NCBI GenBank assembly: GCA_014729335.1 | Contig: WJKC01000018.1 | Span: forward strand, 1-35,309 | DNA from: an archaeon | GTDB lineage: Archaea; Nanobdellota; Nanobdellia; WJKC01 | Direction: 5' to 3' | DNA length: 35,309 bases | Shown: piece after piece, positions 2,465-29,220 of the stretch | Layout: each line of letters starts with the position of its first letter | Numbering within the stretch: the first letter of the stretch is position 1 | Notes under the pieces: model-generated | The model's input: the letters and a program-made list of their open reading frames with translations, nothing else | The model's database searches: none | What the model was told of the DNA's origin: nothing | Program-made: the position numbers and the translations under genes

Positions 2465-2503
2465 GGAAATATTAATAACCTTTCTTAGTATTTGTTGAAG
2501 TTA

Positions 2504-3274
2504 ATGCTTGAAGCAGTACTAGTAGCGCTCGGGGTCTCAATCGGGGTTAATGTCTTAATGTTCATCCCTGCCTTTATTTATAAGACTGATAAACTAACTG
2601 ATTTATCTTACAGCTTGACTTTTATCATACTGGCAACCATTCTTTTCTTATTCAACACTTATAGTCTTTCTAAATTAATACTCTACTTCATGGTGGCTGC
2701 CTGGGGCGCGAGGCTCGGCACTTACTTATTCATCAGGATTCGTAAGATGAAGAAAGACCCTCGTTTTGATGACAAAAGAGGCGACTTCTTCAAGTTCCTG
2801 AAGTTCTGGCTGGTGCAGGGCTTAACTGTCTGGCTGGTGATGATGTCAAGCACTGTCTTCTTTAATTTAAGTAATACTAGTTTCAATTACTTGTCATTGA
2901 TTGGCTTAATAGTGTGGGGCGCGGGTTTAACAATCGAGTCAGTGGCTGATTACCAGAAATACCAGTTCAAGACTAACCCAAAGAATAAGGGTAAGTGGAT
3001 TGAGTCAGGGTTATGGCATTACTCAAGACACCCTAATTACTTTGGTGAGATAATGAACTGGGTTGGCATCTACTTATTCACGCTCTCATCATTTAACTTA
3101 TTAAACGCGCTGGTAGCACTGGCAAGCCCTGGTTACATAACAATCACTTTGTTATTTATCAGCGGCATCCCTCCTTTAGAAAAACACTCTGACAAGAAGT
3201 ACGGCAAGTATAAAGGGTACAGGGATTATAAGAAAAGGACCAGCGTCCTGATACCATGGTTTACTAAGAAGTAA
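2504..3274 (+). CDS. DUF1295 / steroid 5-alpha-reductase-like membrane protein
   Basis: Multi-TM protein with WHYSRHPNYFGEIMNW, the signature of the DUF1295/S5A-reductase/ICMT-like superfamily. The ORF track starts at TTG 2492. ATG 2504 is preferred because AAATATTAATAAC lies about 26-38 nt upstream. Confidence 0.75.
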   Translation: MLEAVLVALGVSIGVNVLMFIPAFIYKTDKLTDLSYSLTFIILATILFLFNTYSLSKLILYFMVAAWGARLGTYLFIRIRKMKKDPRFDDKRGDFFKFLKFWLVQGLTVWLVMMSSTVFFNLSNTSFNYLSLIGLIVWGAGLTIESVADYQKYQFKTNPKNKGKWIESGLWHYSRHPNYFGEIMNWVGIYLFTLSSFNLLNALVALASPGYITITLLFISGIPPLEKHSDKKYGKYKGYRDYKKRTSVLIPWFTKK

Positions 3275-3309: not shown

Positions 3310-3927
3310 ATGGCTTGCGAGGAAATGGTGTTCTGGGCTGGAGGAGTATTATTCAGCCTCACTAGTATAATGTTTTTATTGTTAAAAAAGAATAATGAGT
3401 CAATAGCCTCAATTAACTTGTTGGTTAATTGCATCACAATAGTCTCCTACGCAGTGATGATTTTCGGGCTAGGGACGATAACAGCGCCTAATGGCGAGCT
3501 AATCTACTGGACCAGGTGGTTATTCTACGCTGGCAGCTGCAGCTTATTAATGTATGAGACAGGGGTTCTTCTTAAGAAGTCAAAAACCACTATTAGTGAA
3601 ATGATGGTGTCAAACATTATTGTAATGGTCACAGGGTTCCTGGCAAGTTATACTATTGGTTTAAGCAGGATAGTTTTCTTCTCAATTAGCTCGGGAGCTT
3701 TCATCTACGTTTTATACTTAATTAATAAGAAGTCGGGCAGGAAGTCATTATTCAAGAAAACAATTAAGTGGTACATCACCCTGTTCTGGTCAATGTTCCC
3801 CTTAATCTGGCTGCTCAGCCCTGCTTACTCAATGGTGCTTAATGCTTACTGGACTGCCACGTTCTACCTGATTCTTGACTTCATTACTAAAGTATTGTAC
3901 GGCTTGTTCACGGTTAAAAAAAGCTAG
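3310..3927 (+). CDS. microbial rhodopsin, schizorhodopsin-like (F-S-E motif)
   Basis: Seven predicted TM helices. Helix C IYWTRWLFYAGSCSLLMYE, helix F LFWSMFPLIWLL and helix G LILDFITKVLYG (D190, Schiff-base K194) align to bacteriorhodopsin helices C, F and G. TATA CTTTTTATTATC lies about 25 nt upstream. Confidence 0.8.
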   Translation: MACEEMVFWAGGVLFSLTSIMFLLLKKNNESIASINLLVNCITIVSYAVMIFGLGTITAPNGELIYWTRWLFYAGSCSLLMYETGVLLKKSKTTISEMMVSNIIVMVTGFLASYTIGLSRIVFFSISSGAFIYVLYLINKKSGRKSLFKKTIKWYITLFWSMFPLIWLLSPAYSMVLNAYWTATFYLILDFITKVLYGLFTVKKS

Positions 3928-4403
3928 TTAAGCCAGGCAATAGAGAAGTTAAGAATAGTGGCTGCTGTGACCCACGCAAGGTAAGGCAGTAATAAGTAAC
4001 CAGCAGTCTTGTTAATACTTCTAAACTCAATCATGGTTGCCAGGATGAAGAACCATAAAAATATTATCTCAATTAACCCGCCAACCAGTGATTTAAAGCC
4101 AAAGAAGATGATTGACCATAAAGCGTTAAGACCTAGTTGAATAAGGTATAACGCGCATGCGAGTTTAGCATCCTTTGACTTGAAACCCTTAGTCCAGATG
4201 ATATAGAAAGAGATACCCATTAAGGTGTAAAGCGAGGTCCACATCGGGCCGAACAACCAGTTAGGGGGCGTTATTGACGGCTTGTTAAGCGACGCGTACC
4301 ACGTAGGGATTGATTGGAAAGTAAATATTGAGCCAATCATGCCAGCTGCCTGGGCAATGATTACTGAGATTATTAACTTTTTCCAGTCAATCTTTAACTT
4401 CAT
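3924..4403 (-). CDS. tspO: TspO/MBR family tryptophan-rich sensory protein
   Basis: WYASLNKPSITPPNWLFGPMWTSLYTLMG, LNALWSIIFFG and LLLPYLAWVTAATILN are classic TspO motifs; five TM helices. Confidence 0.9.
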   Translation of the reverse strand: MKLKIDWKKLIISVIIAQAAGMIGSIFTFQSIPTWYASLNKPSITPPNWLFGPMWTSLYTLMGISFYIIWTKGFKSKDAKLACALYLIQLGLNALWSIIFFGFKSLVGGLIEIIFLWFFILATMIEFRSINKTAGYLLLPYLAWVTAATILNFSIAWLN

Positions 4404-4422: not shown

Positions 4423-4992
4423 CTAATTAAAATACTTTTCAGCTTTAGGTAATAATTCATTAAGGAATCGCTTACCTGTCTCTGTCTTAAATAAAGGCGC
4501 TCTGAACTCTTTATAATGATTCAAGAATAAAGGGTAAACCTCTTCACTAAGAGTAGGAGTAACAGCTTCAACATCAATCTTAGATAAGTTATCAGCTTCA
4601 AAAACTAGTTGGTGATTACGTGATTTAATCTCAAGGTCATCATGATGCTTAACCAAGTAAATAATCTCCTTAATCTCAGGTTTAGAGTAATCGCCTAGTT
4701 TCTTAAGAATTACTTCAGCTTTCCTCGCGCCCTCAACAGCGTGGAACCTCTTTAATTCCTTAATCCGCTTAAGCCTGTCCTTGTTTAAGTCTTCAACAAC
4801 GGGGTAGCCAATGTCATGCAAGTACATAGCAGTCACAAGGACTTTCTCATCACCACCCTCCTTTTCAATTAATTTTCTCATCCAGTTAACAGCGTTAAGC
4901 GTGTGAGGCACATCCCAATCCTTCCTGCCTTTACTTAAGTGCTTTAATGCTTCTTTCTTTAATCGTTCTTCAAGCTCCTTAGTTAATTTCAT
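4423..4992 (-). CDS. HD-domain phosphohydrolase
   Basis: H..(N)..LHDIGY..HHD..D pattern (VPHTLNAV, MYLHDIGY, VKHHDD, EADNL). Its start overlaps the PfkB stop by 4 nt. Confidence 0.7.
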   Translation of the reverse strand: MKLTKELEERLKKEALKHLSKGRKDWDVPHTLNAVNWMRKLIEKEGGDEKVLVTAMYLHDIGYPVVEDLNKDRLKRIKELKRFHAVEGARKAEVILKKLGDYSKPEIKEIIYLVKHHDDLEIKSRNHQLVFEADNLSKIDVEAVTPTLSEEVYPLFLNHYKEFRAPLFKTETGKRFLNELLPKAEKYFN

Positions 4993-5834
4993 AATAACTC
5001 ATTAAGCTCCGAAATAGTTGCGCTGTTCCGAGCCCCCAGCTTGGTGACGCATATATTACTAGAGATGATGCCCCACCTGCAAGCCTCCTTTAATGACTTG
5101 CCTTTAAGATGAGCTGAGATAAAGGCGCTGGCAAAAGCGTCGCCGGCGCCAGTCGTGTCAGTCACAGGGTAGTCAAGCGACTTAGTTTTAAAAGACTCAT
5201 CCTTGGTGCGAAGGTAGCAGCCGTAGCGGCCCCGCTTAACAACCACTACCTCAACCCCAGCCTCAACTAGTGCCTGAGCAGCCCGCTTATAAGATAAGCC
5301 GGTGATGCTGCGAGCCTCCTCCACGTTAGGGAAGAACACCTTAACATTCTTCAGATAAGGCTTTAATTCATCAAGCTTATACTTAGAAATTGTTGAGCCA
5401 GGGTCAACACTGACGCTGCCCTTAACCTGCTTTAATAATGATAACGGGGGAGTGGCTAGGTGAAGGTGCTCTGCCTTGTTAAAATAAGATTTAAGTCTTA
5501 ATCCCTCTAAGTTAGTGTTAGCTCCAGGGTACTTGAAGAACTTCTTAAAGCGCTTCCGGGTGAATACGACGACGAACCCAGTATGCTCAGGCACCCGCTT
5601 AACTAACGGCTTAACACCCTCGCTCTCTAAGGAATCAACAACCCTCTCTGCAAAGGAATCCCTGCCAATAAAGCCTAGAAAGGCTGCTTCCAAGCCCAGG
5701 CGGGAGCAGCCAACAGCGAAGTTGCAGGCGCTGCCGCCTGCCCGGGTAATGAATTCCTCATTGGTTTTAAGGTTATTTGAATTAATAATCAAGTCAACAT
5801 TAGCATTACCAACACTTAAAACATCAAACACCAC
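4989..5834 (-). CDS. PfkB-family carbohydrate/nucleoside kinase
   Basis: N-terminal GNANVDL, GGSACNFAVG and C-terminal DTTGAGDAFASAFI are ribokinase-family signatures. GTG start, overlapping the ecfA2 stop. Confidence 0.85.
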   Translation of the reverse strand: MVFDVLSVGNANVDLIINSNNLKTNEEFITRAGGSACNFAVGCSRLGLEAAFLGFIGRDSFAERVVDSLESEGVKPLVKRVPEHTGFVVVFTRKRFKKFFKYPGANTNLEGLRLKSYFNKAEHLHLATPPLSLLKQVKGSVSVDPGSTISKYKLDELKPYLKNVKVFFPNVEEARSITGLSYKRAAQALVEAGVEVVVVKRGRYGCYLRTKDESFKTKSLDYPVTDTTGAGDAFASAFISAHLKGKSLKEACRWGIISSNICVTKLGARNSATISELNELL

Positions 5835-6612
5835 TAACCACTTCCTTAACAGTTAAGCAGTCATTCTTTAAACCCTTTACCCGCTGGCATACCCTGGTAA
5901 TCATTGGCGGTGACAAGCCCAGTTTCTTCAGTAATGACTTCTTAGAGAAAACCCTTCGCGTTGAGTCATCAAGCACTAACTTACCATCATCTAACACAAT
6001 AACCCTGTCACAAGTGCCGGCAATAAACTCAATATCATGACTAGCAACAATGAAAGTCTTATCCTCAGATAAGCTTTTAACAATCTTAGTCACCACTCGC
6101 TTGCCAACCGGGTCCTGGCCAGTGGTCGGCTCGTCAAGGATTACAGCGTCAGTATCCATTGCAAGTATTGAAGCAATAGTAATCAGCTTACGCTGGTTGT
6201 AACCAACATCGTAAGGATGTGACTTACGGCGCTTCCATAAACCAACCTTTTCCAATGAATCCTTAACACTTGACTTAAGCTCTTTCTTCTTAAAACCAAG
6301 GTTCCTGGGTCCAAAAGCCACCTCGTCAAAAATGGTTGAGGAGAAAATCTGGTCATCAGGGTTCTGGAAAACGTAGCCGACAATGCTTGATAAAGAAGCA
6401 ATGCTTTGAGGAACCGTGTCCTCGCCATTAATCAAAACCCTGCCTTTTGAAGGCTTCAGCAAGCCGTTGCACAACTTCATGAGCGTTGTCTTGCCGCTGC
6501 CGTTCTGCCCTATTAATCCAACGCGCTCGCCACTCTTAATACTAAAACCAATACCCCTCAAAGCAGTCACCCCCACGGGATACGTGAAGGATACCTTCTT
6601 AAAATCAATCAC
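5824..6612 (-). CDS. ecfA2: ECF transporter ATPase, EcfA2-like, with a degenerate ABC signature (cassette 1)
   Basis: Walker A GQNGSGKTT, Walker B AVILDEPTTGQD and H-loop ASHD are present. VGYNQ stands in place of LSGGQ. GTG start in a GTGA overlap with the ecfA1 stop. Confidence 0.85.
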   Translation of the reverse strand: MIDFKKVSFTYPVGVTALRGIGFSIKSGERVGLIGQNGSGKTTLMKLCNGLLKPSKGRVLINGEDTVPQSIASLSSIVGYVFQNPDDQIFSSTIFDEVAFGPRNLGFKKKELKSSVKDSLEKVGLWKRRKSHPYDVGYNQRKLITIASILAMDTDAVILDEPTTGQDPVGKRVVTKIVKSLSEDKTFIVASHDIEFIAGTCDRVIVLDDGKLVLDDSTRRVFSKKSLLKKLGLSPPMITRVCQRVKGLKNDCLTVKEVVSGV

Positions 6613-7460
6613 TTAACCACCTTCCTTAAACCCTCAACCGCCTCCTTAACGGTTATTGGGAGCTCCTGCTTCCATTTACGCTTTTTTTTCAAAGCCTCAC
6701 CTAATAAAGTAACAGGTAAGGGGTCAATCTTATTACGCTTCAACAACTTAGTATCACTAAGTATCTCCTGGGGAGAACCATCACGAACCACCCTGCCGTT
6801 ATTAAATAATATTATCCTGTCAGCGTAGCGGGCGAGGTACTCCAGCTTATGAGTAACAATAATGATGGTCTTGCCCTGATTATTCAACTTCTTAACTAAT
6901 GAGAACACTGCCTCAGTTCCGCCCGGGTCAAGGTAGCCGGTGGGCTCGTCAAGGATTAATATCTTAGGCTCCAACACTAAAACACTGGCAATACCAACCT
7001 TCTGCATCTGACCACCACTAACCTCAAAAGGGCTGCGCTTTCTCAATTCATATAAACCCACCCGCTTAAGCACTGACTTAATCCGCTTACCCATCTCAGA
7101 CCGCGGCACGCCGGTGTTCTCCAACCCAAAAGCCACTTCCTCCTCAATAGTCAAGCCCGCCCCAGTTAACTGTGACTTAGGCGACTGCATTATGATGCCG
7201 ACACGGGATGATAACTCGCCAATACTGCTATCCTGAGTGTCCAACCCGTCAATAATTACTTTACCGCCCTTAACCCTGCCCTGACTAAGATGAGGGACCA
7301 CGCCCATGATAGAGTAACAAAAAGCTGTCTTGCCGCTGCCGCTGGGGCCAAGTAAACCAACAAATTCACCCTTTTTTATTTTCAGATTAACTCCCTGCAA
7401 GTCATGCTCTTCCCGCTCAAAATAATGCCACTTGAAATCCTTAAACTCTATAACCGTCAT
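6609..7460 (-). CDS. ecfA1: ECF transporter ATPase, EcfA1-like (cassette 1)
   Basis: Walker A GPSGSGKTA, canonical signature SGGQMQKV, Walker B ILILDEPTGYLD. ATGA overlap with ecfT. Confidence 0.9.
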   Translation of the reverse strand: MTVIEFKDFKWHYFEREEHDLQGVNLKIKKGEFVGLLGPSGSGKTAFCYSIMGVVPHLSQGRVKGGKVIIDGLDTQDSSIGELSSRVGIIMQSPKSQLTGAGLTIEEEVAFGLENTGVPRSEMGKRIKSVLKRVGLYELRKRSPFEVSGGQMQKVGIASVLVLEPKILILDEPTGYLDPGGTEAVFSLVKKLNNQGKTIIIVTHKLEYLARYADRIILFNNGRVVRDGSPQEILSDTKLLKRNKIDPLPVTLLGEALKKKRKWKQELPITVKEAVEGLRKVVK

Positions 7461-8236
7461 CCAATCACCCTGAACACCACGTAAATAATTAGTAATACAA
7501 CAGATAAAGCAATTAATAACTTATCAGTTAAGGTTATGTTCTCAACATACAATGAAGTCTTATCTGCTGTTGAACTAAAACCCCTGACCTCTAAAGCAAT
7601 TGTCCGCTCATAAACCTTCATCACGCTGCCAAGAACTATAGGCCCTAGTAATGGCACGTAAGCACCCAGTCTCTTAGTAATACTGCCCTTAGTCTCAAGA
7701 CCCCTGGCCCGCTGGGCGTCAATAATAGTTTCAGCCTCCCGCAGCATTAAAGGCACAATCTGAAGAGTCGCGTTAACTAGGAAGCCTAGTTTATGAGGAA
7801 AGCCAATAGTCCTTAAAGAAGTAACCATCCTGCCAGGATAAGTGGTGAGGATGAACAAGTAAAAAACACTGATTAAAGCACTAATCTTAAAACCAAAGAA
7901 TAATCCATAATAAAAACCTTCAAGCGAGATATTAATAGTATAAAAGGAGAATAATACTTCCTCACTGATGCCAAAAGGATTGAACAAGCCGTGAATCATC
8001 AAAGAGAAAAGGAATATTGGACCAATCATGAAAACAAGGCCCTTAATAAAATCCCTCCCAACCTTCCCAAGGAAAGCCAATAAAAGAATTATAATATTAA
8101 CAACTATGAAAAGGGTCATTGACCCTGAAAACAGGAATAAAACAACCACTAAGGAGACCCATGAGAACTTAACTAACGGGTTTAAAGAGTGAATCACTGA
8201 ATCCTTCTTAATATAATTAGTCTTGAGAAAAGCCAT
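7457..8236 (-). CDS. ecfT: ECF transporter transmembrane (T) component (cassette 1)
   Basis: CbiQ/EcfT-like polytopic protein with the coupling motif AQRARGLETKG. Confidence 0.85.
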   Translation of the reverse strand: MAFLKTNYIKKDSVIHSLNPLVKFSWVSLVVVLFLFSGSMTLFIVVNIIILLLAFLGKVGRDFIKGLVFMIGPIFLFSLMIHGLFNPFGISEEVLFSFYTINISLEGFYYGLFFGFKISALISVFYLFILTTYPGRMVTSLRTIGFPHKLGFLVNATLQIVPLMLREAETIIDAQRARGLETKGSITKRLGAYVPLLGPIVLGSVMKVYERTIALEVRGFSSTADKTSLYVENITLTDKLLIALSVVLLIIYVVFRVIG

Positions 8237-8277
8237 TTAAGAAAAAAATAAGAAAAGAAAAATTATAAACCCTTTGA

Positions 8278-8883
8278 TTACTTATTCCTAAGCATTCTGG
8301 AAGGCAGTTTCTTCATAACCGCGAACACGATGAATACAGACAATACTTTATCAAGCAAGTCAGTCACTAACTCGCTGCCAAAAACAGCGGTTAACAACCC
8401 GGTTGATTCCTCGGTTCCAAGAATCATAGCAGTTATCAAGTCAGCGCCAGCACCAGTAACGCCGCCAAAGAAATAGACGGTTATGGGAGCTGAGATAACA
8501 GTTGCAGCAAAAGCCAGTATCAAACCAGTGCCTAATACTTCAACCCAGTTAGACTTCTCAGTGAACCTGCCGGTCTTATACATGTAACCGGCAATCAAAC
8601 CAATAACCGCGTTAACAATACCATAAGCAGCGCCTATCGGGTCAAAAGTAAAGTTCTTAACAAGGTTTGTCAAGCCTCCTGCGGCAAAACCAACCCATGG
8701 ACCAGCCAGCACAGCGGCAATAATGGTTCCAATCGTATCGCCCCAGATAGGAAGCTTAAGTGTCTGAACCAGGAAACCGCCAGCCCAGTTAATACCAATA
8801 GCAATTGGTATTAACGCTAATCCGTAAGTGCTGAACTCCTTCTTTAATTCTTCCAGAAAACCTTTCTTAGTTTTTTTAGCCAT
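8278..8883 (-). CDS. putative ECF substrate-capture (S) component, substrate unknown (cassette 1)
   Basis: About six TM helices and a lysine-rich N-terminal tail. It sits directly upstream of ecfT-ecfA1-ecfA2 and has a paralog at 14030-14668. The start abuts the stop of the phosphorylase gene. Confidence 0.6.
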   Translation of the reverse strand: MAKKTKKGFLEELKKEFSTYGLALIPIAIGINWAGGFLVQTLKLPIWGDTIGTIIAAVLAGPWVGFAAGGLTNLVKNFTFDPIGAAYGIVNAVIGLIAGYMYKTGRFTEKSNWVEVLGTGLILAFAATVISAPITVYFFGGVTGAGADLITAMILGTEESTGLLTAVFGSELVTDLLDKVLSVFIVFAVMKKLPSRMLRNK

Positions 8884-9633
8884 TTATTTATCCCTCAATT
8901 TTTTTATCGCAGATAAAGCGACCATGATTGAATTACGCTCACCTTCATAAGCAGGTCCTTTACGACTACTAATCTGCTCAACGTAATCAGTGATACCGCC
9001 CTCAGGCTCCTCAACATGAAACTCTGAAACAATATTCAAGATACTGCCGGTCTTAACCTTTAATAACCTGCTAATAATAAATAATGGTGATGTTTCAAAG
9101 TCACTTCCTAATAAGCCAACCCTTGACCAGAACTGCTCAACCTTGTCATTATCAGGCTGGTAAAAACCGTCATGACTGCGGGTAACACCCTCATGATACT
9201 TAACACCTAATCCCTCAGCACTCTTAACAAGGGCTTTCAGCACTTTCTTATTAGGGTAAGCGGGAGTTGATTTATCAGCGTACAATCTTGACACCCCGTC
9301 CTCTCGCACGCAAGAACTAGGTATTATTAACTCACCCTCCTTCATACCCTTCTGAAGAGCCCCGCTGCTGCCAACCCTTATTAAAACCTGAGCACCACAT
9401 TTAACTAATTCATGAATAGCAATCGCAATGCTTGGACCACCCATGCCGGTTGAGCAGACAGTTACTGGAACCCCCTTATAATCACCGTTATAAACCAAGT
9501 AACCTCTATAATCACTAATCTTCTTAGCATTCTTTAAGTGCTTTGCAATCCTTAAAACCCTCCCGGGGTCGCCGGGCAATAAGCAGTACTTATTAACATC
9601 CTTTTTACCAACCCTCAAGTGCGGCTGCTTCAT
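8884..9633 (-). CDS. nucleoside phosphorylase, NP-I family (Udp/DeoD-like), paralog 1
   Basis: LLPGDPGRV, CSTGMGGPSIAIAIHEL, IRVGSSGAL, DGFYQPD and SDFETS resemble E. coli Udp (CSTGIGGPSTSIAVEEL) and DeoD. Confidence 0.85.
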   Translation of the reverse strand: MKQPHLRVGKKDVNKYCLLPGDPGRVLRIAKHLKNAKKISDYRGYLVYNGDYKGVPVTVCSTGMGGPSIAIAIHELVKCGAQVLIRVGSSGALQKGMKEGELIIPSSCVREDGVSRLYADKSTPAYPNKKVLKALVKSAEGLGVKYHEGVTRSHDGFYQPDNDKVEQFWSRVGLLGSDFETSPLFIISRLLKVKTGSILNIVSEFHVEEPEGGITDYVEQISSRKGPAYEGERNSIMVALSAIKKLRDK

Positions 9634-9676
9634 TTATAACTAAGTATTACAGCATCCTCTAATAAAAACCTTACTT
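9634..9676 (-). promoter_or_regulatory. promoter/5' element of cassette 1, conserved with 15401-15443
   Basis: The minus strand reads AAGTAAGGTTTTTATTAGAGGATGCTGTAATACTTAGTTATAA then ATG. The TATA TTTTTATTA has 26 nt between its end and the ATG. 40/43 positions are identical to the cassette-2 upstream region. Confidence 0.7.
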
Positions 9677-9678
9677 AC

Positions 9679-10089
9679 TTAAATAGTTAGGAAAATAATG
9701 CTGATAATTGAAAAGATTAGTCCAATAACCACTCGCTTATCAACTTTTTCTTTCAAGAAAACAAATCCAAGCAGTGATGGTATCAAAGTAATGCCGACGT
9801 TGTGCAGTGGTACAACCCTTGAAGCACTGGTTAAACTAATAGCCAGGTAATAAAATGATAAACCAGTTGACACAAGGAAGCCTGATAACAAGGCAACACC
9901 CAGCTCCCTCTTACTAAGCCTTGGAGTCAAACCCTTATAAAGAAGGTAAGAACTAACTCCCACAAAGCTCCCGAAGTACTGGAATAAAAGAATAACTAAT
10001 GGGTGAACACTAAGGGAAAAAAACTTAACAAGAAACAATACTGTGCCCTGGATAACCATTGCAAAAAGAGAGAATAACAGCCAGTTCAA
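9679..10089 (-). CDS. EamA-domain half-transporter (DMT superfamily), second of a pair
   Basis: 136 aa, 4-5 TM helices, EamA-like. 4-nt overlap with the upstream paralog. Confidence 0.6.
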   Translation of the reverse strand: MNWLLFSLFAMVIQGTVLFLVKFFSLSVHPLVILLFQYFGSFVGVSSYLLYKGLTPRLSKRELGVALLSGFLVSTGLSFYYLAISLTSASRVVPLHNVGITLIPSLLGFVFLKEKVDKRVVIGLIFSIISIIFLTI

Positions 10090-10493
10090 GGCTGCTCACC
10101 TCCAAGCAAGTAGACAGCTGTTACACCAAAGAACAAACCTAATACTAAGTTAAACGTTAATGGCTCGCTTAAAAAAACCAGTCCAAGAACAGCTGTTACC
10201 AGCATCTTAAGATTAAACACGGGCGAGACCCTTGACAACGAACCCTTCTTAAGAGCAAGGTAGAAGAAAGCAATACCCAGAACATAAAAAAAACCTAACA
10301 AGAATATTAAATAACCTCCCTGCTCAAGCCTTGCCTGAAGTAAAAAGGAATAAAACCAGACCAAGGGGATGGCAATCAAGTACTGGTAAAAAAGAACAAC
10401 CAAAGGGTTAACATCCTTAAACAACTTCTTAACCAGGAAAGTGCTGAGGCTCATCAAGACAAAAGCAATAACAACATATAACAACCATAACAT
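10086..10493 (-). CDS. EamA-domain half-transporter (DMT superfamily), first of a pair
   Basis: 135 aa, 4-5 TM helices, same architecture as 9679-10089. Confidence 0.6.
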   Translation of the reverse strand: MLWLLYVVIAFVLMSLSTFLVKKLFKDVNPLVVLFYQYLIAIPLVWFYSFLLQARLEQGGYLIFLLGFFYVLGIAFFYLALKKGSLSRVSPVFNLKMLVTAVLGLVFLSEPLTFNLVLGLFFGVTAVYLLGGEQP

Positions 10494-10539
10494 TAACTTA
10501 AAGCAAGGTTTTTATTAAATAAAAGAGTTTAGTAAAAAA

Positions 10540-11067
10540 ATGATGGAAGCATTAAAAGCAATCAACACCAGAAGAAGCGTCAGGAAGTATAAAAAGAAAA
10601 AGGTTCCTAAAAAAATAATCAAAGAACTAATCAATGCAGCGCGCAACGCGCCGTCAAGTTATAATGAGCAGCCATGGGTGTTCATTACAATCACTGACAA
10701 GGAAAAACTAAGAAAAATCGCTGAGCCGGAAGAGCAGAAAAGCAACTTCTTAAAAGACGCTCCATTAGTAATCGCGTGCTGTTATGATGAAAAAAAGAGC
10801 AGCACTAAGATACATAACCTTGAGAACGTCGCAGTCGCGGCTGAGAACATCCTAATAGCAGCTAATGCCTTGGGTTTAGGCGCCTGCTACGTGACAGCCT
10901 TCACATCAAAGTACCCGGTGATTGAGAAAAGAATAAGAAAAGTATTGAAGCTCCCGGGAAACGTTCACCCTGTATGCTTAATAACTATTGGCTACCCTGA
11001 CGAGGAACCAGTTGATAAAGAAATGAGGCCGTTGAAAGAAGTGTGGAAAAAGGAGGAGTACGTATAA
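10540..11067 (+). CDS. nitroreductase family protein
   Basis: RRSVRKYKKK..V....I..L..AARNAPSSYNEQPW and GLGACYV are nitroreductase-fold motifs. Confidence 0.85.
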   Translation: MMEALKAINTRRSVRKYKKKKVPKKIIKELINAARNAPSSYNEQPWVFITITDKEKLRKIAEPEEQKSNFLKDAPLVIACCYDEKKSSTKIHNLENVAVAAENILIAANALGLGACYVTAFTSKYPVIEKRIRKVLKLPGNVHPVCLITIGYPDEEPVDKEMRPLKEVWKKEEYV

Positions 11068-11577
11068 ATGGACGCTGTTAAAGCAGTGATGACTCGCAGG
11101 AGTATCAGGAAATACAAAAAAAAGGATGTTCCTAAAAAGCTAATAATGAAATTAATTGACGCTGCAAGGCAGGCGCCCAGCGCCTACAATGACCAGCCGT
11201 GGGAGTTCATAGTAGTTAAGAACAAGGAGACGATGAAGAAAATAACCAAGTACAAAAGCAAGTTCATGCTTGACGCGCCGGTATGGATTTTCTGCGGTTA
11301 TAATAAAAATAAAAGCAGCACTGAACACGACCTTGAGAACACTGCCCTGGCAATCGAGAACTTATTAATAACAGCCCATGCCATGGGCTTAGGAGCAGTT
11401 TACACAGGCGGTTACGACCCGGGAGATAAAAGTTTAGAAAAAGCAATCAGCAAAGCACTTAACCTGCCTAAGAATGTTCACATTGTATCAATAGTCTGCG
11501 TTGGCTGGCCTGACGAGGAGCCAGGGGAGAAAGAGATGAGACCATTAAGCAACATGACTCACTTCGAGACCTTCTGA
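11068..11577 (+). CDS. nitroreductase family protein (tandem paralog)
   Basis: RRSIRKYKKK, AARQAPSAYNDQPWEF and GLGAVYTG. GGAGGAG lies 11 nt upstream of the ATG. Confidence 0.85.
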   Translation: MDAVKAVMTRRSIRKYKKKDVPKKLIMKLIDAARQAPSAYNDQPWEFIVVKNKETMKKITKYKSKFMLDAPVWIFCGYNKNKSSTEHDLENTALAIENLLITAHAMGLGAVYTGGYDPGDKSLEKAISKALNLPKNVHIVSIVCVGWPDEEPGEKEMRPLSNMTHFETF

Positions 11578-12371
11578 AGCTCCTTAACTAACTCATTAAT
11601 TGTTAACACATCACTTGGCATGCCCTTAACACCCTGACCCAACTGGGTTATTAACGGCGGCTTCAAATAAGTCTTGTTAAGCAGTTTTTTCTTAGTAAAA
11701 GCCTTCTTAGGCGAGCCTTCAAATATTACTCGTGAATCATACATCATTACCACGCGGTCAGCAACTTTTGAAACAAGCTCCATGTTATGCGAGATGATGA
11801 TAACTGTATGCTCTTTCCTTAACTTATTAATAAGTGATTCAACCTTAACTATCCCCTGATGGTCCTGGCCGTTAGTGGGCTCGTCAAGTATTATCACATC
11901 AGGCTTCATCGCAATGATTGAAGCCATGGTTACGAGCTTCTTATCATTAAGATTCATGTCAAGCGGGTGTTTTTTACGGGACTCCCATAAACCAACCATT
12001 TTAAGAGCGTTCTTAACACTTGACTTCAACTCTTTTCCTTTAAAGCCAAGGTTCTTAGGTCCAAAAGCCACCTCTTCATAAACCTTGCTCATGAATAACT
12101 GGTCATCAGGGTCCTGGAAAACGTAGCCGACAATCTTTGATAACTGGGCAGTTGTTAAATCCCTAGTATCCTTACCCTCAACAAGCACCTCGCCCTTAGT
12201 CGGCTTAAGCAGCCCGTTGAAATGCTTGACAAGCGTTGTCTTGCCGCTGCCATTCTGCCCAATAATAGCGGTTACCTCGTCCTCATTAAGCTCTAAATTA
12301 ATATCACGAAGAGCAGTCACCTTAGCCGGGTAAGTAAAAGTCACCTTGCTGGCTTTAATAATCGGCGTCAC
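11559..12371 (-). CDS. ecfA2: ECF transporter ATPase, EcfA2-like, with a degenerate ABC signature (cassette 2)
   Basis: Walker A GQNGSGKTT and Walker B VIILDEPTNGQD are present. MNLND stands in place of LSGGQ. GTG start in a GTGA overlap, as in cassette 1. Confidence 0.85.
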   Translation of the reverse strand: MTPIIKASKVTFTYPAKVTALRDINLELNEDEVTAIIGQNGSGKTTLVKHFNGLLKPTKGEVLVEGKDTRDLTTAQLSKIVGYVFQDPDDQLFMSKVYEEVAFGPKNLGFKGKELKSSVKNALKMVGLWESRKKHPLDMNLNDKKLVTMASIIAMKPDVIILDEPTNGQDHQGIVKVESLINKLRKEHTVIIISHNMELVSKVADRVVMMYDSRVIFEGSPKKAFTKKKLLNKTYLKPPLITQLGQGVKGMPSDVLTINELVKELQKVSK

Positions 12372-13219
12372 TTCTTAACCACCTTCTTAATCATCTTCTT
12401 AGCATCACCCAGGGTCAAGCATAAAGAACCCTTATACAAGCCCTCCTTAATTAACTGCTCAGATAACTGTGTATAAACAGAGGGGATAATTCCATTACGT
12501 CTTAATAATTTAACATCAGTTAGTATTTTCCTAGCTTTATCAACCTTAACCAGCTTGTTTTTATTAAGAATTGCAACCCTGTCAGCGAACTCAGCCAAGT
12601 AGTTAATCTTCTGAGTGTTAAGGATAATGGTTATACCCTTCTTAGCCAGCTTCTTAATAAGGTCAAAAACCTGAGAAGTGCCCAGCGGGTCAAGCTGGGC
12701 AGTCGGCTCATCCAGCACAAGTATCCGCGGCTGCATTATTAACACGCTGGCAATAGCAACTTTTTGCTGCTGGCCCCCTGATAACTCAAAAGGACTGCGA
12801 TTCCTAAAAGACTCTAAACCAATTAGTTTAACCATCTTCTTAACACGCTTATTCATCTCTTTTTGGGGGACGCCCAGGTTCTCCAGTCCAAAAGCCAGTT
12901 CCTCCTCAACAGTTGTCCCAGCACCGGTTAACTGGGTGTCAGGCGACTGGAAAATCAAACCTACACGGGTTGATAACTCGGCAATGCTTGACTCCTCAAC
13001 ACTTAAACCATCAACCACTAATTCGCCTTTAATCCTGCCAGGGAAGAAGTGAGGGATTAATCCGAGCATTGTCATACAGAAAGTGCTCCTGCCTGAGCCA
13101 ACGCGGCCAATAACACCAAGGAACTCCCCCTCCTTAACTGACAGGTTAATATTCCTAAGAGTAGGTTTTTTATAACCTTGATAAGTCCATGAGAAATCCT
13201 TAAACTTTACAATAGCCAT
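12368..13219 (-). CDS. ecfA1: ECF transporter ATPase, EcfA1-like (cassette 2)
   Basis: Walker A GRVGSGRST, signature SGGQQQKV, Walker B ILVLDEPTAQLD. Confidence 0.9.
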   Translation of the reverse strand: MAIVKFKDFSWTYQGYKKPTLRNINLSVKEGEFLGVIGRVGSGRSTFCMTMLGLIPHFFPGRIKGELVVDGLSVEESSIAELSTRVGLIFQSPDTQLTGAGTTVEEELAFGLENLGVPQKEMNKRVKKMVKLIGLESFRNRSPFELSGGQQQKVAIASVLIMQPRILVLDEPTAQLDPLGTSQVFDLIKKLAKKGITIILNTQKINYLAEFADRVAILNKNKLVKVDKARKILTDVKLLRRNGIIPSVYTQLSEQLIKEGLYKGSLCLTLGDAKKMIKKVVKK

Positions 13220-13983
13220 GAAACCACCCCGTAAATAATTGAAAGAATAATTGAGCTGGCAGTTATTAATTTATCCTGCTTAGTGAACTTAACATCGCGG
13301 TACCTGGTCTTATCACACTCAGCCCTAAAAGCCCTAGCCTCCAACGCCATTGCCCGCTCAACAGCGTTCTGAACCGAGCCCATGAATAAAGGACCAAGCA
13401 ATGGAGTATAAGCTTTCAAACGCTTAATAACACTACCCTGAGTCTCCAAGCCCCTGCTCCGCTGGGCTTCAATAATAACCTCTGTCTGGGAAGTGACCCG
13501 CGGGATTAACTGCAGTGTAGTTATTAAAACATAGCCAAGCCAGTGAGGCATGCCCCGCTCCTTTAACTCTGACACCAAGTCCCCGGGGTGAGTGGTTAAG
13601 ACAAATAAGTAACCATAAACCATGATGACTAACAAGCGGGCTGAGATATCCACTGCGTATAATAATCCTTCAAGCCAGATAGCAAACCCGAAAGGGAGCT
13701 GGACCAGCACTGTCTCCCTGAAAGGATAAAAGAAACTCTGAATACCAAACAAGAACACGAAGATAATGAACAAATAACGGAGCGGTTTAAAAACCTGTCT
13801 TAACAGTTTTGCCTCATAAGCAAATGGTATGATGAAAAAGAAAAGTATTAAGTTATACATAAAATTCTTCAACAAGAAGCTGAGGGTTATAGCACAAACA
13901 GCTAACACTAATTTTGTTAAAGGGTTCAACTTATGGAAAAAGGACTTCTTTTTAACATAAGAGATTAACACTGCCTCGGGCAT
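13207..13983 (-). CDS. ecfT: ECF transporter T component (cassette 2)
   Basis: Paralog of 7457-8236; AQRSRGLETQG coupling motif. Confidence 0.85.
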   Translation of the reverse strand: MPEAVLISYVKKKSFFHKLNPLTKLVLAVCAITLSFLLKNFMYNLILFFFIIPFAYEAKLLRQVFKPLRYLFIIFVFLFGIQSFFYPFRETVLVQLPFGFAIWLEGLLYAVDISARLLVIMVYGYLFVLTTHPGDLVSELKERGMPHWLGYVLITTLQLIPRVTSQTEVIIEAQRSRGLETQGSVIKRLKAYTPLLGPLFMGSVQNAVERAMALEARAFRAECDKTRYRDVKFTKQDKLITASSIILSIIYGVVSWLL

Positions 13984-14029
13984 TGTATTAAAGAATAATT
14001 AAATAAAAGAATAAAAAGTTATTGTCCTG

Positions 14030-14668
14030 TTATCTTATCTTGCTCGCGTACTTAAACATTCTCGCGTAGCGGTCTGGCAACCGCTTAATAGACAACCACG
14101 GCACGAATACGGCTATCACCGCCTTATCCAGTATCTCAACCAGGAACCTTGATGCAAATATTGAGGTCCAGAAGTTCTGACCCATTGCCAGGAAGAAACC
14201 AAACACCAAGTCAATTCCAGCGCCTGAGACGCCGCCCCTGACAAATACCACGATTACTGAACTAATAGCTGCTGCTGTCACGGCTATTCCCACGCCGCCA
14301 AGAAATACCTGCCACCACTTCTTAAACCAGCCCTTGTAAGTGAAATAACCTGCTAGCATTCCTATACCTAACTGCACTGTTCCGAAGAACACTGAAGTCG
14401 CGCGTCCATAAATAAGCGCTGTGACAACGTTAGTCAAAAAACCGCCCACGCCCGCGACCCAAGGCCCGCATAGCATTGCAGTAAAGATTGTTCCAATAGT
14501 ATCCAGCCATATTGGCAGTCCAAGCGCCTGGTGTATCAACCTGCCTGCCTGGTTAATACCAATAGCGATTGGTATCATAACTATCGCAACTGTCGTGAAC
14601 TCGGATTTTATTCGTTCAATAATCCCCTTCTTTGCCTTTGTTTTTTTCTTTGTTTTTTTCTTAACCAA
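14030..14668 (-). CDS. putative ECF S component (cassette 2)
   Basis: Paralog of 8278-8883 (IPIAIGINQAG..LP IWLDTIGTI..LCGPW). TTG start with GGAGGTGGG 5-13 nt upstream, inside the end of the phosphorylase gene. Confidence 0.6.
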   Translation of the reverse strand: MVKKKTKKKTKAKKGIIERIKSEFTTVAIVMIPIAIGINQAGRLIHQALGLPIWLDTIGTIFTAMLCGPWVAGVGGFLTNVVTALIYGRATSVFFGTVQLGIGMLAGYFTYKGWFKKWWQVFLGGVGIAVTAAAISSVIVVFVRGGVSGAGIDLVFGFFLAMGQNFWTSIFASRFLVEILDKAVIAVFVPWLSIKRLPDRYARMFKYASKIR

Positions 14669-15400
14669 TCAACCCACCTCCTCTAATTTTTTAATAGCAT
14701 TAAGAGCCACCATTATAGCGTTCTTCTCTCCCCGACGCCTCTCTTTTTCCTGTTTAATAATATCCTTATGAGTTTGCTTCTCAGCAATGTTCAACCCGCC
14801 GTAAGCAATGAATCCGGCCCGAACACCCCTCAGCCTCGCCAGTATGAAAAGCATTGATGACTCCATATCACTCGCGAGAACCCCTCTCTTTGACCACTCC
14901 ATCATCTGCTCCCGATGACTCTTTGAGTAAAAAGCGTCAGTGCACATTGTCAAGCCGTAATGAAACTTCTTGCCTGACTCACGGGCGCTGTTAATCAAAG
15001 CATTAAGAACATCATAATTAGGCACTGCTGCGAACTCGTAGCGCTCGTACGCAAGAGTACTGTCCTCCTCCTTACACACACCAGTGCTGATAACCAAGTC
15101 CCCGGTCTTCATACCTTTCTGAAGCATGCCGCAGCTGCCTGCCCGGATAATAGTCTTAGCACCAACATTGATTAACTCCTCAATAGCTACTGCAGCGCTC
15201 GGACCACCAATACCAGTATTACAGATGGTTACCGGCACTCCCTTGTACTCGCCGTTGGCAATAATGTAACCACGATTAACACTAACCTTCTCAGCTTTAT
15301 CAAGCAGCTTCATGATAACGTCAACCCTTTCAGGCCTGCCAACTATTAAGCAGTAATCATTAACCTCTCCCTTGTCCACCCTCAAGTGCGGCTGCTTCAT
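14669..15400 (-). CDS. nucleoside phosphorylase, NP-I family (Udp/DeoD-like), paralog 2
   Basis: CNTGIGGPSAAVAIEEL, IRAGSCGML, DAFYS, SDMESS and GVRAGFIA. The first 8 codons are identical in DNA to paralog 1. Confidence 0.85.
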   Translation of the reverse strand: MKQPHLRVDKGEVNDYCLIVGRPERVDVIMKLLDKAEKVSVNRGYIIANGEYKGVPVTICNTGIGGPSAAVAIEELINVGAKTIIRAGSCGMLQKGMKTGDLVISTGVCKEEDSTLAYERYEFAAVPNYDVLNALINSARESGKKFHYGLTMCTDAFYSKSHREQMMEWSKRGVLASDMESSMLFILARLRGVRAGFIAYGGLNIAEKQTHKDIIKQEKERRRGEKNAIMVALNAIKKLEEVG

Positions 15401-15443
15401 CTATAGCTAAGTATTACAGCCTCCTCTAATAAAAACCTTACTT
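15401..15443 (-). promoter_or_regulatory. promoter/5' element of cassette 2, conserved with 9634-9676
   Basis: The minus strand reads AAGTAAGGTTTTTATTAGAGGAGGCTGTAATACTTAGCTATAG then ATG. It is squeezed between the trmJ stop codon and the ATG. Confidence 0.7.
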
Positions 15444-22969: not shown

Positions 22970-23503
22970 ATGGTTTATCAATTCAAAGTAGTTCTTGCAG
23001 GACAAGCAGCAGTTGGTAAAACAGCACTCGCTGACAGGTTTGTTTATCAAAAATTCCAAGAAAAGTACAAGTTGACTATTGGGGTTGAAATGTATACTAA
23101 GAAGGTTGATATTAAAGATGAAACAGCTATACTAACAATATGGGATATTGGCGGTCAAAGCAGGTTTGAATCAATAAGGGAACTATTCTTTAATGGAGCG
23201 GACGGGGCAATATTCATCTACGACGCAACAAGCTCAGACTCTTTATTCGCATTACACACGTGGTTTAAAGAGTATAAAAGAAGCAATAAAATGAAGTATG
23301 ATATTAGTCATAACATTCTTGTAAAAAATAAGATAGACTTAATAAAAAATGTTGGGGAAGTTATCAGTGAAAAAATGATTAACACAATTGCCAGAGACCC
23401 TAATGGCAGGATTAAAGAACTATATGACGTATCAGCCAAAAAAGGCACTGGTGTTAAGAAAATGTTTGAAGGACTTACAAAACTAATACTAGATAATAGA
23501 TAA
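22970..23503 (+). CDS. Ras-superfamily small GTPase, Rab-like
   Basis: G1 GQAAVGKT, G2 YKLTIGVE, G3 WDIGGQSRF, G4 NKID, G5 SAK. 177 aa, with no C-terminal Cys prenylation motif. Confidence 0.85.
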   Translation: MVYQFKVVLAGQAAVGKTALADRFVYQKFQEKYKLTIGVEMYTKKVDIKDETAILTIWDIGGQSRFESIRELFFNGADGAIFIYDATSSDSLFALHTWFKEYKRSNKMKYDISHNILVKNKIDLIKNVGEVISEKMINTIARDPNGRIKELYDVSAKKGTGVKKMFEGLTKLILDNR

Positions 23504-28599: not shown

Positions 28600-29220
28600 A
28601 TGTTCCGCGACAGAGAGGATGCTGGTAAACAGTTAGCAGATTTATTGAAGCCTTACAAGGACGAGGACGTTATTGTCTTATCCATCCCTCGGGGCGGGGC
28701 AGAGATTGGCTACTGGGTTGCCAAGGAATTAAGAGCGCCTCACAAAGCAATTGTTGTGAGGAAGCTGCCATTACCTCATAAACCTGAAGCTGGTTTCGGC
28801 GCTATTGCCGAGGACGGCAGCACTTACATGCAGGAAGGACATGAGGACTGGTTAAGCAGTGAAGAGATTAAACGGGTTAAAAAAGAACAGCAGGAAGAAA
28901 TAAAGAGGAGGGTTCAGAAATTAAGAGAGGGGGAGCCACTGCCGAGTCTTAAAGGCAGGACAGTAATACTAGTTGACGACGGCATAGCCATGGGTTCCAC
29001 AATGATTGCTGCTATCAAGGCTTGCAGCAACCTCGGAGCCAAGAGGATAATAGCTGCCTCGCCAGTCTCAAGCCGGGAGGTAGGGTTAGTTATTGCTAAA
29101 CTAGTTGACGAGTTAATAATTATTGAAACGCCTCATAACTTCTACGCCGTTGCCCAGGTCTATGAAAGATGGCATGATGTTACTTATGAGGAAGCTAAGA
29201 AATGGCTTCGCGAATCTTAA
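28600..29220 (+). CDS. phosphoribosyltransferase-domain protein (COG1926-like)
   Basis: FRDREDAGKQLA, LSIPRGGAEIG and the PRPP-binding loop VILVDDGIAMGSTM. Confidence 0.8.
   Translation: MFRDREDAGKQLADLLKPYKDEDVIVLSIPRGGAEIGYWVAKELRAPHKAIVVRKLPLPHKPEAGFGAIAEDGSTYMQEGHEDWLSSEEIKRVKKEQQEEIKRRVQKLREGEPLPSLKGRTVILVDDGIAMGSTMIAAIKACSNLGAKRIIAASPVSSREVGLVIAKLVDELIIIETPHNFYAVAQVYERWHDVTYEEAKKWLRES

Follow-up and report, generated by a model that had tools for sequence, protein, structure and literature searches.

The 35,309-nucleotide (nt) stretch of archaeal DNA analyzed here (assembly GCA_014729335.1, contig WJKC01000018.1, positions 1 to 35,309; hereafter the window) carries the same five-gene cassette twice on its minus strand, and we consider it likely that the two are paralogous, dedicated group-I energy-coupling factor (ECF) importers for nucleosides, each with its own promoter and each translationally coupled to a nucleoside phosphorylase of the NP-I family. 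In both cassettes (cassette 1, 5824-9633; cassette 2, 11559-15400) the order is nucleoside phosphorylase (NP), S component (S), EcfT scaffold (T) and the ATPases EcfA1 (A1) and EcfA2 (A2); two cassettes of this order had been described in an earlier sequence-only reading of the same DNA, and the list of open reading frames (ORFs) matches that description exactly in coordinates, strand and gene order. A nucleoside is favored as the transported molecule because two non-homologous enzymes that break N-glycosidic bonds, both accompanied by a ribokinase-family kinase, are tied to one transporter family.

Results

Comparative evidence was drawn from 185,579 species genomes, which were searched with a 10-sequence alignment of S and yielded 280 confirmed loci, the best 80 of which were kept, and from metagenome look-ups that added further loci (all designated here by L numbers); ORFs called at these loci were searched with the window proteins and clustered to define neighbor classes. 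The order S-T-A-A is found in nearly all 80 loci, the exceptions being contig-end cuts or ORFs missed by the simple caller. In archaea, NP lies directly upstream of S in 14/14 cassettes (two each from the window, L001 and L082, and one each from L002-L004, L081, L085 and L089-L091), at spacings that run from a 29-nt overlap to a 78-nt gap, that of L002 being uncertain because its S start is not fixed. The co-occurrence of phosphorylase and ECF genes in related genomes, which the sequence-only reading had named as one of the points on which it could fail, thus holds in every archaeal cassette, and among the best 80 loci NP is found beside S only in the four archaeal loci L001-L004. Further genes of nucleoside metabolism adjoin the cassette in DPANN loci, as in L003, which has SurE, an Amidohydro_1 enzyme and a second PNP_UDP_1.

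In the sister bacterial clade, a different enzyme stands beside the transporter. An IU-nucleoside hydrolase (IUNH; PF01156, 7e-97; one or two copies) and a PfkB kinase flank S in L006, L010, L013, L042 and L079 (Bacillota and Actinomycetota); the order in L086 is GntR, S-T-A-A-PRAI-PfkB-IUNH, and L087 (2760-10002) has LacI, a PF01676 Metalloenzyme-family protein of 387 amino acids (aa) that may be phosphopentomutase-like, and IUNH-S-S-IUNH-S-T-A-A-PfkB, so that three paralogous S genes are interleaved with two hydrolases and have one T-A-A module in common. In a neighbor-joining tree of S, which is a rough distance tree without support values, context follows clade, and the archaeal NP-linked clade has the hydrolase-linked one as its nearest bacterial branch. 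A third context was found only in Desulfosporosinus loci, where S adjoins a TudS-related desulfidase of the CD3072 type (NF045597, 144.7 bits against a cut-off of 130), whereas the window and all archaeal S genes have the NP-I phosphorylase upstream. TudS enzymes desulfurize thiouracil, 4-thiouridine and 4-thio-UMP (PMC10611767), so that this context, too, involves the chemistry of pyrimidine nucleosides and is compatible with a nucleoside as cargo. A 192-aa Desulfosporosinus neighbor was considered as a DUF523 protein, but it has no Pfam match and NCBIfam places it in the CD3072 TudS-related family.

Families in the window were assigned by scanning ORF translations with Pfam and NCBIfam, and paralogue identities were obtained from pairwise comparison (Table 1). 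At the protein level the two cassettes are 50% (NP), 42% (S), 39% (T), 51% (A1) and 52% (A2) identical, and at the DNA level 64-72%, in patches. The stop codon of NP abuts the start of S in both cassettes (gap of 0), S and T are separated by 41 nt in cassette 1 and 46 nt in cassette 2, and the T-A1 and A1-A2 junctions are overlaps of 4-13 nt. The T components carry Arg-containing coupling motifs, QRARG/QRSRG and EVRG/EARA, those of T1 being QRARG and EVRG. The cassette-1 ATPases match TIGR04520 and TIGR04521 at E values of 1e-66 to 1e-71, under the equivalog cut-offs; those of cassette 2 were assigned from their 51-52% identity to this scanned pair together with their Walker A/B motifs, and the type-2 A1 orthologues in L082 and L089-L091 match PF00005. 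Because an S fold, a T component and two ATPases are all in place, we file both cassettes, on sequence and predicted structure, as group-I (dedicated) ECF importer modules.

S1 and S2 have only one strong match to a named family, over their full length: NF045596, the "CD3073 family putative ECF transporter S component" (125.6 bits, 1.6e-36, for S1; 104.9 bits, 3.5e-30, for S2). Both stay under its curated cut-off of 180 bits, for which reason we do not file them as members; by these scores they are relatives of the CD3073 family, for which NF045596 gives no assigned substrate. The TudS-linked S protein of Desulfosporosinus locus L029, taken as a control, scores 210.2 bits and so lies above the cut-off, and only its desulfidase-linked clade passes; S proteins linked to NP, to hydrolases or to PCC-domain proteins (see Discussion) score 105-151 bits. 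In Pfam and NCBIfam neither S1 nor S2 has an above-threshold match to a vitamin or metal S family (ThiW, FolT, QueT, BioY, RibU, CbiM/NikM and others); the ThiW models reach 26.5-26.9 bits against cut-offs of 30.3 and 84, the FolT-family model reaches 18.4 against 60, and QueT/QrtT models give no match to the window S proteins in either collection. The sequence-only claim that these proteins resemble no named vitamin S family is therefore borne out as regards vitamin and metal models, but it has to give way in that both are recognizable, sub-threshold relatives of NF045596.

An AlphaFold2 model of S1, built from a 47-sequence alignment (predicted local distance difference test score, pLDDT, 88.5; predicted template modeling score, pTM, 0.86), was compared by Foldseek with the PDB. 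Its top 15 matches are all ECF S components (RibU, FolT, ThiT, PanT and others; template modeling (TM) scores of 0.47-0.72, 11-19% identity), and S1 is thus predicted to have the six-helix S-component fold. The nearest solved relative in a profile search against the PDB, folate FolT (5D0Y, E 1e-11), is a distant one. In a profile search of 1.84 billion representatives, the family comprised 362 clusters (at 50% identity) at E<=1e-30 and 2261 at E<=1e-10. Its long members were looked at as a possible clue to substrate and gave none, as they are either sensor kinases that carry an S-like domain or fusions of S and T; in P0348, P0353 and P0354 a CD3073-like S domain is fused to DUF4118-PAS-HisKA-HATPase-receiver sensor kinases and a STAND NTPase, which echoes the link of S-component folds to receptors in published work (PMC11109136).

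For both phosphorylases the best NCBIfam match is the uridine phosphorylase (UP) model TIGR01718 (NP1, 179.7 bits; NP2, 190.8 bits; cut-off 280), followed by DeoD-type purine nucleoside phosphorylase (PNP) models (106-127 bits, under cut-offs of 230-338), and because these cut-offs are not reached we file neither as a bona fide Udp or DeoD. The best PDB matches of the pair are 4LNH, the top match of NP1 (4.7e-56), which was deposited as "uridine phosphorylase" and which we take to be a structural-genomics entry, and the Thermus PNP 1ODI. In an alignment of the two with E. coli UP and PNP (reference sequences that agree exactly with 1K3F and 1PR0), the residues that bind phosphate and ribose, H5, R25, R43, R86, S89, F157, Y158 and E180, were invariant in both, and the UP-specific insertion with the uracil-binding Gln166/Arg168 was missing from both and from all clade members aligned. 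NP1 and NP2 are thus probably active ribonucleoside phosphorylases. They differ by type: in type-1 NP, Phe replaces the Met of the E-M-E motif, which belongs to the ribose/base site, and in type-2 NP an insertion of 4 residues precedes the conserved LNI motif.

The sequence-only reading had taken the two cassettes for an old duplication rather than an assembly artefact, from an identity of about 60% over the first 60 phosphorylase residues. The count is 37/60 (62%), and the age of the duplication follows from L001 and L082, each of which holds separate orthologues of both types. In L001, "Candidatus Tiddalikarchaeum anstoanum" LFW-252_1, the two lie in direct tandem, the first orthologous to cassette 1 (S 55%, NP 51% identity) and the second to cassette 2 (S 64%, NP 61%, T 57%); L082, a closer relative, is laid out like the window, with one orthologue of each type. 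Among Nanoarchaeia, type 2 occurs widely, and many of the homologues of cassette 2 are labelled "Candidatus Nanoarchaeia archaeon", the S2 orthologues being 60-79% identical. On this comparison the two cassette types are older than these DPANN lineages and have each been maintained separately. Residues that are at least 85% conserved within each type (14 type-1 and 32 type-2 sequences) distinguish the S proteins as well (type 1/type 2): W33/Q beside the invariant N32, K76/T, F80-D81/Y-G, Y87/F and E171/R, the last a reversal of charge. These differences suggest S-NP pairs that have co-evolved for different substrates; because the types are old, are conserved separately and can be told apart by residues of S as well as of NP, each probably serves a nucleoside class of its own, and a difference in specificity between the two copies, already raised in the sequence-only reading, is plausible.

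Both in the window and at about 70 related loci the ATPase pair is asymmetric: LSGGQ is kept in A1, and the signature of A2 is degenerate (VGYNQ, MNLND, LGYSG, LHTAQ and others). The A1 of cassette 1 has canonical motifs throughout (GPSGSGKT, VSGGQ and VTHK); in that of cassette 2 the signature LSGGQQQK is canonical, and the Walker A motif GRVGSGRS has Arg for Lys and the H-loop NTQK has Gln for His, as the archaeal type-2 orthologues likewise have Walker-A Lys-to-Arg and H-loop His-to-Gln/Asn changes. From these motifs, the ECF ATPase dimer is predicted to have one non-catalytic nucleotide site; to our knowledge, solved ECF ATPase pairs have canonical signatures in both subunits.

Each cassette begins with one copy of a near-identical repeat of about 65 nt, which spans about -42 to +23 of the NP start and thus includes the first 23 coding nt. 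Its 33-nt core is present in exactly two places, both of which fit the degenerate pattern without a mismatch, where 0 matches would be expected by chance; outside the repeat, the two cassettes are unrelated further upstream, and within the coding sequence identity falls to about 65%. A promoter repeat is also present in L082 (upstream of 4085 and 9285), where the part that follows the TATA box differs from that of the window, and the single-cassette relatives have unrelated sequence upstream of NP. The repeat points to concerted evolution by gene conversion and to co-regulation of the cassettes from separate promoters. Two other explanations for it were rejected. An RNA hairpin at the start codon is at odds both with the position of the TATA-like box, which precedes the ATG by about 31-38 nt and so allows hardly any 5' untranslated region, and with the pairing, which is not conserved between the window and L082; a universal operator does not agree with the unrelated upstream sequence of the single-cassette relatives, and gene conversion or recent copying fits better. 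The spacers between S and T, of 41-46 nt, are T-rich in all archaeal cassettes inspected, including those of L001, L081 and L082, and attenuation or an internal promoter at this site could result in more NP and S than T-A-A.

Downstream of cassette 1, the PfkB gene overlaps A2 by 11 nt and an HD-domain gene overlaps PfkB by 4 nt, and from these overlaps the sequence-only reading had proposed a seven-gene operon. The overlaps are real, but the unit is not a conserved one. PfkB is kept at this position in L081, L082 and L089-L091, and in none of these is it followed by the HD gene, which is specific to the lineage of the window; PfkB itself appears to come from an EamA-EamA-PfkB operon. The single-cassette loci L089, L090 and L091 have NP2-S2-T-A-A, one or two nitroreductase genes on the opposite strand, and EamA-EamA-PfkB with gaps of 15-18 nt, which is likely the ancestral layout; in the window and L082, the EamA pair and PfkB are separated by cassette 1. 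In L081, cassette 1 is the sole cassette and is followed by PfkB, the layout that would be expected from a deletion between the 65-nt repeats. In L085 the EamA pair directly follows A2 (NP-S-T-A-A-EamA-EamA), and L001 keeps both a nitroreductase gene and the EamA pair beside its cassettes.

The kinase has the motifs TGAGD and NVEE and only generic PDB matches. Its NCBIfam scores are 113.5 bits for ribokinase (cut-off 299.65), 59.3 for nucleoside kinase, and 99.8 and 94.8 for two ribose-1-phosphate (R1P) kinase models (cut-offs 500 and 330); because the cut-offs are not reached we file it neither as a ribokinase nor as an R1P kinase, and its candidate substrates are ribose, R1P or a nucleoside, for which the models match weakly and about equally. 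Since its older partner is the EamA pair, one member of which weakly resembles the sugar permeases GlcU/RhaT (E of about 6e-4 to 9e-4), the kinase may also have formed part of a ribose permease and ribokinase unit. The BluB model matches the nitroreductases of the window weakly (68-75 bits, cut-off 150), and a nitroreductase neighbor is also present at L001, L082, L089, L090 and L091. For the HD protein we found no PDB relative, and comparison with PDB and NCBIfam gave no classification.

The sequence-only reading had attributed the DNA to a small-genome archaeon, which is reasonable in view of the nearest homologues and of synteny with DPANN contigs. The housekeeping genes of the window are archaeal (ribosomal protein S2, an archaeosine-type tRNA-guanine transglycosylase with a PUA domain, PAC2 and a class II aminoacyl-tRNA synthetase), and the closest S and NP homologues are in DPANN genomes (L001 and metagenome-assembled genomes labelled Parvarchaeota, Anstonellales and Micrarchaeales). 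Long syntenic contigs, among them the 727-kb L089 (GCA_030615175.1), have M50 peptidases, YdjM, DUF192, Memo, S2, exosome genes and a Ras-family GTPase in common with the window; the GTPase, of the Ras/Roc/Arf type (22970-23503, plus strand; PF00071, 7e-36), is at 3086-3619 in L089. An Asgard archaeon was also considered as the source, in view of this GTPase and of a short rhodopsin, but was rejected because the best matches and the synteny lead to DPANN genomes of Nanoarchaeia and of the Micrarchaeota type. Elsewhere in the window, at 28600-29220 (plus strand) and 29195-30844 (minus strand), a gene for a phosphoribosyltransferase-domain protein, possibly a base-salvage enzyme and encoded by the first of these stretches, adjoins those of the archaeosine-type transglycosylase and a radical-SAM/DUF5591 protein. 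Next to the HD gene lie genes for a DUF1295 membrane protein (2492-3274, plus strand), a bacteriorhodopsin-like protein that is short at 205 aa (3310-3927, plus strand) and a TspO/MBR protein (3924-4403, minus strand); because HD, TspO, rhodopsin and DUF1295 genes were not found between PfkB and DUF192 in L081, L082, L089 and L091, the block is read as a lineage-specific insertion.

Table 1. Cassette genes, their control regions and adjoining genes, with positions in the window
Feature	Position (nt)	Strand	Assignment
NP1, NP-I nucleoside phosphorylase type 1, first gene of cassette 1	8884-9633	-	PF01048, 1.7e-36
S1, ECF S component type 1	8278-8883	-	PF12822, 8.3e-14
T1, EcfT scaffold	7457-8236	-	PF02361 CbiQ, 2.4e-29
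A1 of cassette 1, canonical ABC ATPase	6609-7460	-	PF00005, TIGR04520/TIGR04521
A2 of cassette 1, ABC ATPase with degenerate signature VGYNQ	5824-6612	-	PF00005, TIGR04520/TIGR04521
NP2, NP-I nucleoside phosphorylase type 2, first gene of cassette 2	14669-15400	-	PF01048, 1.1e-39
S2, ECF S component type 2	14030-14668	-	PF12822, 25.8 bits; NF045596, 104.9 bits
T2, EcfT scaffold	13207-13983	-	PF02361 CbiQ, 9.4e-27
A1 of cassette 2, ABC ATPase	12368-13219	-	51% identity to cassette-1 A1
A2 of cassette 2, ABC ATPase with degenerate signature MNLND	11559-12371	-	52% identity to cassette-1 A2
Putative promoter of cassette 1 and 5' end of NP1, with TATA-like AAGGTTTTTATT box	9611-9675	-	near-identical repeat of about 65 nt
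Putative promoter of cassette 2 and 5' end of NP2, second copy of the repeat	15378-15442	-	sequence comparison
T-rich S1-T1 spacer, candidate internal attenuator (oligo-T) and/or internal TATA	8237-8277	-	
S2-T2 spacer, cassette-2 equivalent	13984-14029	-	
PfkB/ribokinase-family kinase	4989-5834	-	PF00294, 3.7e-46
HD-domain phosphohydrolase	4423-4992	-	PF01966, 4.4e-12; overlaps PfkB stop
Half-size EamA/DMT permease pair	10086-10493 and 9679-10089	-	PF00892
Two tandem nitroreductase-family genes	10540-11067, 11068-11577	+	PF00881

Discussion

Building on the gene content, fold, conservation, co-localization and motif states that we observed, and inferring substrate, direction of transport, fate of the product and difference in specificity from comparative genomics, one could envision the following. 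The S protein, of about 200 aa, would bind a ribonucleoside at the outer face and topple against the EcfT scaffold, and transport would be driven by the asymmetric EcfA1/A2 dimer with its one consensus and one degenerate ATP site. Inside the cell, the phosphorylase encoded upstream would cleave the nucleoside to base and ribose-1-phosphate; the base would be salvaged by phosphoribosyltransferases, one of which may be that encoded at 28600-29220, and the sugar phosphate or sugar would pass to the PfkB kinase, a conserved enzyme whose gene closes the array, the two cassette types probably serving different nucleoside classes. Dedicated uptake and phosphorolysis of nucleosides had been proposed in the sequence-only reading, and this core of the proposal is strengthened by the invariant NP-S pairing of the 14 archaeal cassettes and by the hydrolase and PfkB genes of the bacterial loci, whereas the linkage it drew to the kinase and HD genes has had to be revised.

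Several observations weigh against nucleoside import. The case for a nucleoside substrate of this S family is a comparative one, and the commonest bacterial context, a PCC-domain protein (PF03479, PCC/DUF296) in about 46 of the 80 loci, says nothing about nucleosides; in these loci (Chloroflexota, Desulfobulbia and the Enterobacteriaceae Citrobacter, Klebsiella and Kluyvera) the PCC protein precedes the ECF module in a very consistent pairing, often with the addition of a protein like the YedF C-terminal domain (TIGR03527, 99 bits). Substrates may thus differ between S clades, and the tree by which the clades are ordered is, as noted, a rough one. The phosphorylases fall under every NCBIfam equivalog cut-off and lack the Q166/R168 insertion, so that a base preference is hardly to be read from their sequences, and the PfkB kinase is likewise not assignable to a substrate by comparison with PDB and NCBIfam. 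By the synteny described above, moreover, PfkB is ancestrally linked to the EamA pair and not to the ECF genes, cassette 1 having been inserted between them, and the conserved nitroreductase neighbor has no explanation in a model of nucleoside import.

Among other substrates, the one that fares best, although we consider it unlikely, is a modified pyrimidine: the importers would carry thiolated or selenated uracil or uridine derived from tRNA turnover, and NP would cleave the modified uridine. The only S proteins that pass NF045596 adjoin a CD3072-type TudS-related desulfidase, the known TudS substrates are thiouracil and thiouridine derivatives (PMC10611767), many Chloroflexota loci add the YedF-like sulfur/selenium protein, and the window NPs are most like uridine-phosphorylase models. 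However, neither a desulfidase nor a YedF-like gene is present in the window or in any archaeal locus examined, and the archaeal clade stands apart from the TudS-linked one, its nearest bacterial branch being linked to IUNH and PfkB. Two full importers and a sugar kinase, furthermore, look like nutrient scavenging rather than a route for a trace metabolite.

Alternatively, the cargo could be a different riboside or a heteroaromatic compound from which a cofactor is made, with nicotinamide riboside, alpha-ribazole and flavin- or pterin-like molecules as examples; the nitroreductase would then act in the same pathway. Vitamins and their precursors are the classic cargo of ECF transporters, the nearest solved S component by profile is a folate FolT (5D0Y, E 1e-11), and the nitroreductase neighbors are both conserved and weakly BluB-like. 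Against this, the FolT-family, ThiW and other S models score far under their cut-offs and the nitroreductases are encoded on the opposite strand, and bulk nucleoside catabolism is a better fit to duplicate or triplicate S genes that alternate with generic IU-nucleoside hydrolases in the company of PfkB and a PF01676 protein, so that we regard a substrate of this kind as less likely still.

We find it very improbable that the system salvages 5'-deoxy or 5'-methylthio nucleosides such as 5'-methylthioadenosine (MTA) and 5'-deoxyadenosine, with NP as an MTA phosphorylase (MTAP) and the transporter comparable to ECF MtaT. The NP-I family does include the hexameric archaeal MTAP, and 1JDS was matched at 1e-29 to 1e-33; an ECF S component for MTA is also reported to have been predicted by Rodionov and colleagues in 2009. 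Yet models and structures of uridine phosphorylase and PNP score far above those of MTAP, and the IU-nucleoside hydrolases and PfkB of the sister clade favor ordinary ribonucleosides. In addition, L003 and L004 have a separate MTAP-like PNP_UDP_1 gene beside the cassette, that of L003 in the company of SurE and an Amidohydro_1 enzyme.

Equally hard to credit is a mere adjacency of NP and ECF genes, the transporter importing an unrelated micronutrient and NP serving internal nucleotide turnover: co-localization is the sole evidence for the link, and compact DPANN genomes often pack unrelated genes with overlaps, as the window-specific HD gene overlapping PfkB illustrates, but the NP-S junction is kept across lineages in which S is only 31-55% identical and the flanking genes are wholly different, the entire NP-S-T-A-A unit has been duplicated and retained as a unit, and in bacteria an analogous enzyme takes the place of NP.

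DPANN archaea, as far as we know, generally lack de novo nucleotide synthesis, and their acquisition of precursors is poorly defined at the level of transporters. The locus described here is a clonable candidate, a four-protein importer encoded in one operon with the first catabolic enzyme and conserved across several DPANN lineages. If nucleoside import is correct, it would add nucleosides to the vitamins and trace metals that ECF transporters carry, and it would supply a substrate hypothesis for an uncharacterized S family of Enterobacteriaceae (Citrobacter, Klebsiella and Kluyvera), Chloroflexota, Desulfobacterota and Bacillota; the conserved single-site asymmetry of the ATPases offers a separate mechanistic handle on the use of ATP by ECF modules. 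More tentatively, and with rather less confidence than we have in nucleoside import by the window cassettes, one might suppose that CD3073-related S proteins form a widespread, unassigned ECF branch that was ancestrally one of nucleoside importers energized by an ATPase dimer with a single catalytic site, that the NP-coupled versions of DPANN archaea (Nanoarchaeia and Micrarchaeota-type lineages) are their main gateway for nucleic-acid building blocks from host or environment, and that the two types split this pool, for example into pyrimidines and purines.

In the full-text literature we found no account of the CD3073 family, of ECF transporters linked to NP or hydrolases, or of such a system in DPANN archaea, although an earlier prediction in the 2009 ECF census is possible; nor did we find a published nucleoside-specific ECF system besides QrtT/QueT for queuosine precursors (PMC11130926, PMC11477304). 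The closest relative by sequence is the CD3073/CD3072 pair (NF045596/NF045597), with which the window cassettes have in common a dedicated S-T-A-A module and a degenerate A2 signature, and from which they differ in that S adjoins a phosphorylase rather than a desulfidase and scores under the family cut-off. The QrtT and QueT S components, which together with the queuosine hydrolase QueK serve in the salvage of queuosine and preQ1 (PMC11130926, PMC11477304), are the only characterized case of ECF nucleoside uptake that we found, and they are alike in that an ECF S gene lies beside the gene for an enzyme that cleaves the imported nucleoside. They belong, however, to a different S family, the core in C. 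difficile is common to several S components (PMC11477304) whereas the T-A-A module of the window is dedicated, and they carry a trace tRNA-modification precursor to a hydrolase, whereas the partner in the window is a phosphorylase and the proposed cargo is general nucleosides.

Among solved complexes, FolT1/FolT2-EcfAA'T (5D0Y, 5D3M, 5JSZ, 7NNT) is nearest both by profile (E 1e-11, 4e-10) and by fold (TM 0.61-0.72), and its toppling mechanism is presumably common to the window system; the identity is only 16-17%, and FolT is a modular S component of group II, unlike the dedicated group-I system of the window with its degenerate A2. In having an NP-I phosphorylase and a PfkB kinase in one array, the window also resembles the archaeal pentose bisphosphate pathway of Thermococcus and haloarchaea. 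The R1P-kinase models match the window kinase over its full length (1.8e-28 and 6.6e-27), but no better than ribokinase does, and neither ribose-1,5-bisphosphate isomerase nor form III RuBisCO is encoded in the 35-kb window, which is one stretch of a genome; the pathway as described by Aono and colleagues in 2015 reportedly has no associated transporter. Bacteria import nucleosides through binding-protein ABC transporters (BmpA-NupABC/RnsBACD) and NupC/NupG/CNT permeases, which feed phosphorylases or hydrolases and ribokinase. The window system would be like them in its proposed role of scavenging nucleosides and unlike them in its architecture: it has neither an extracytoplasmic binding protein nor a permease of the CNT or NHS type, and in their stead it would use an S component integral to the membrane.

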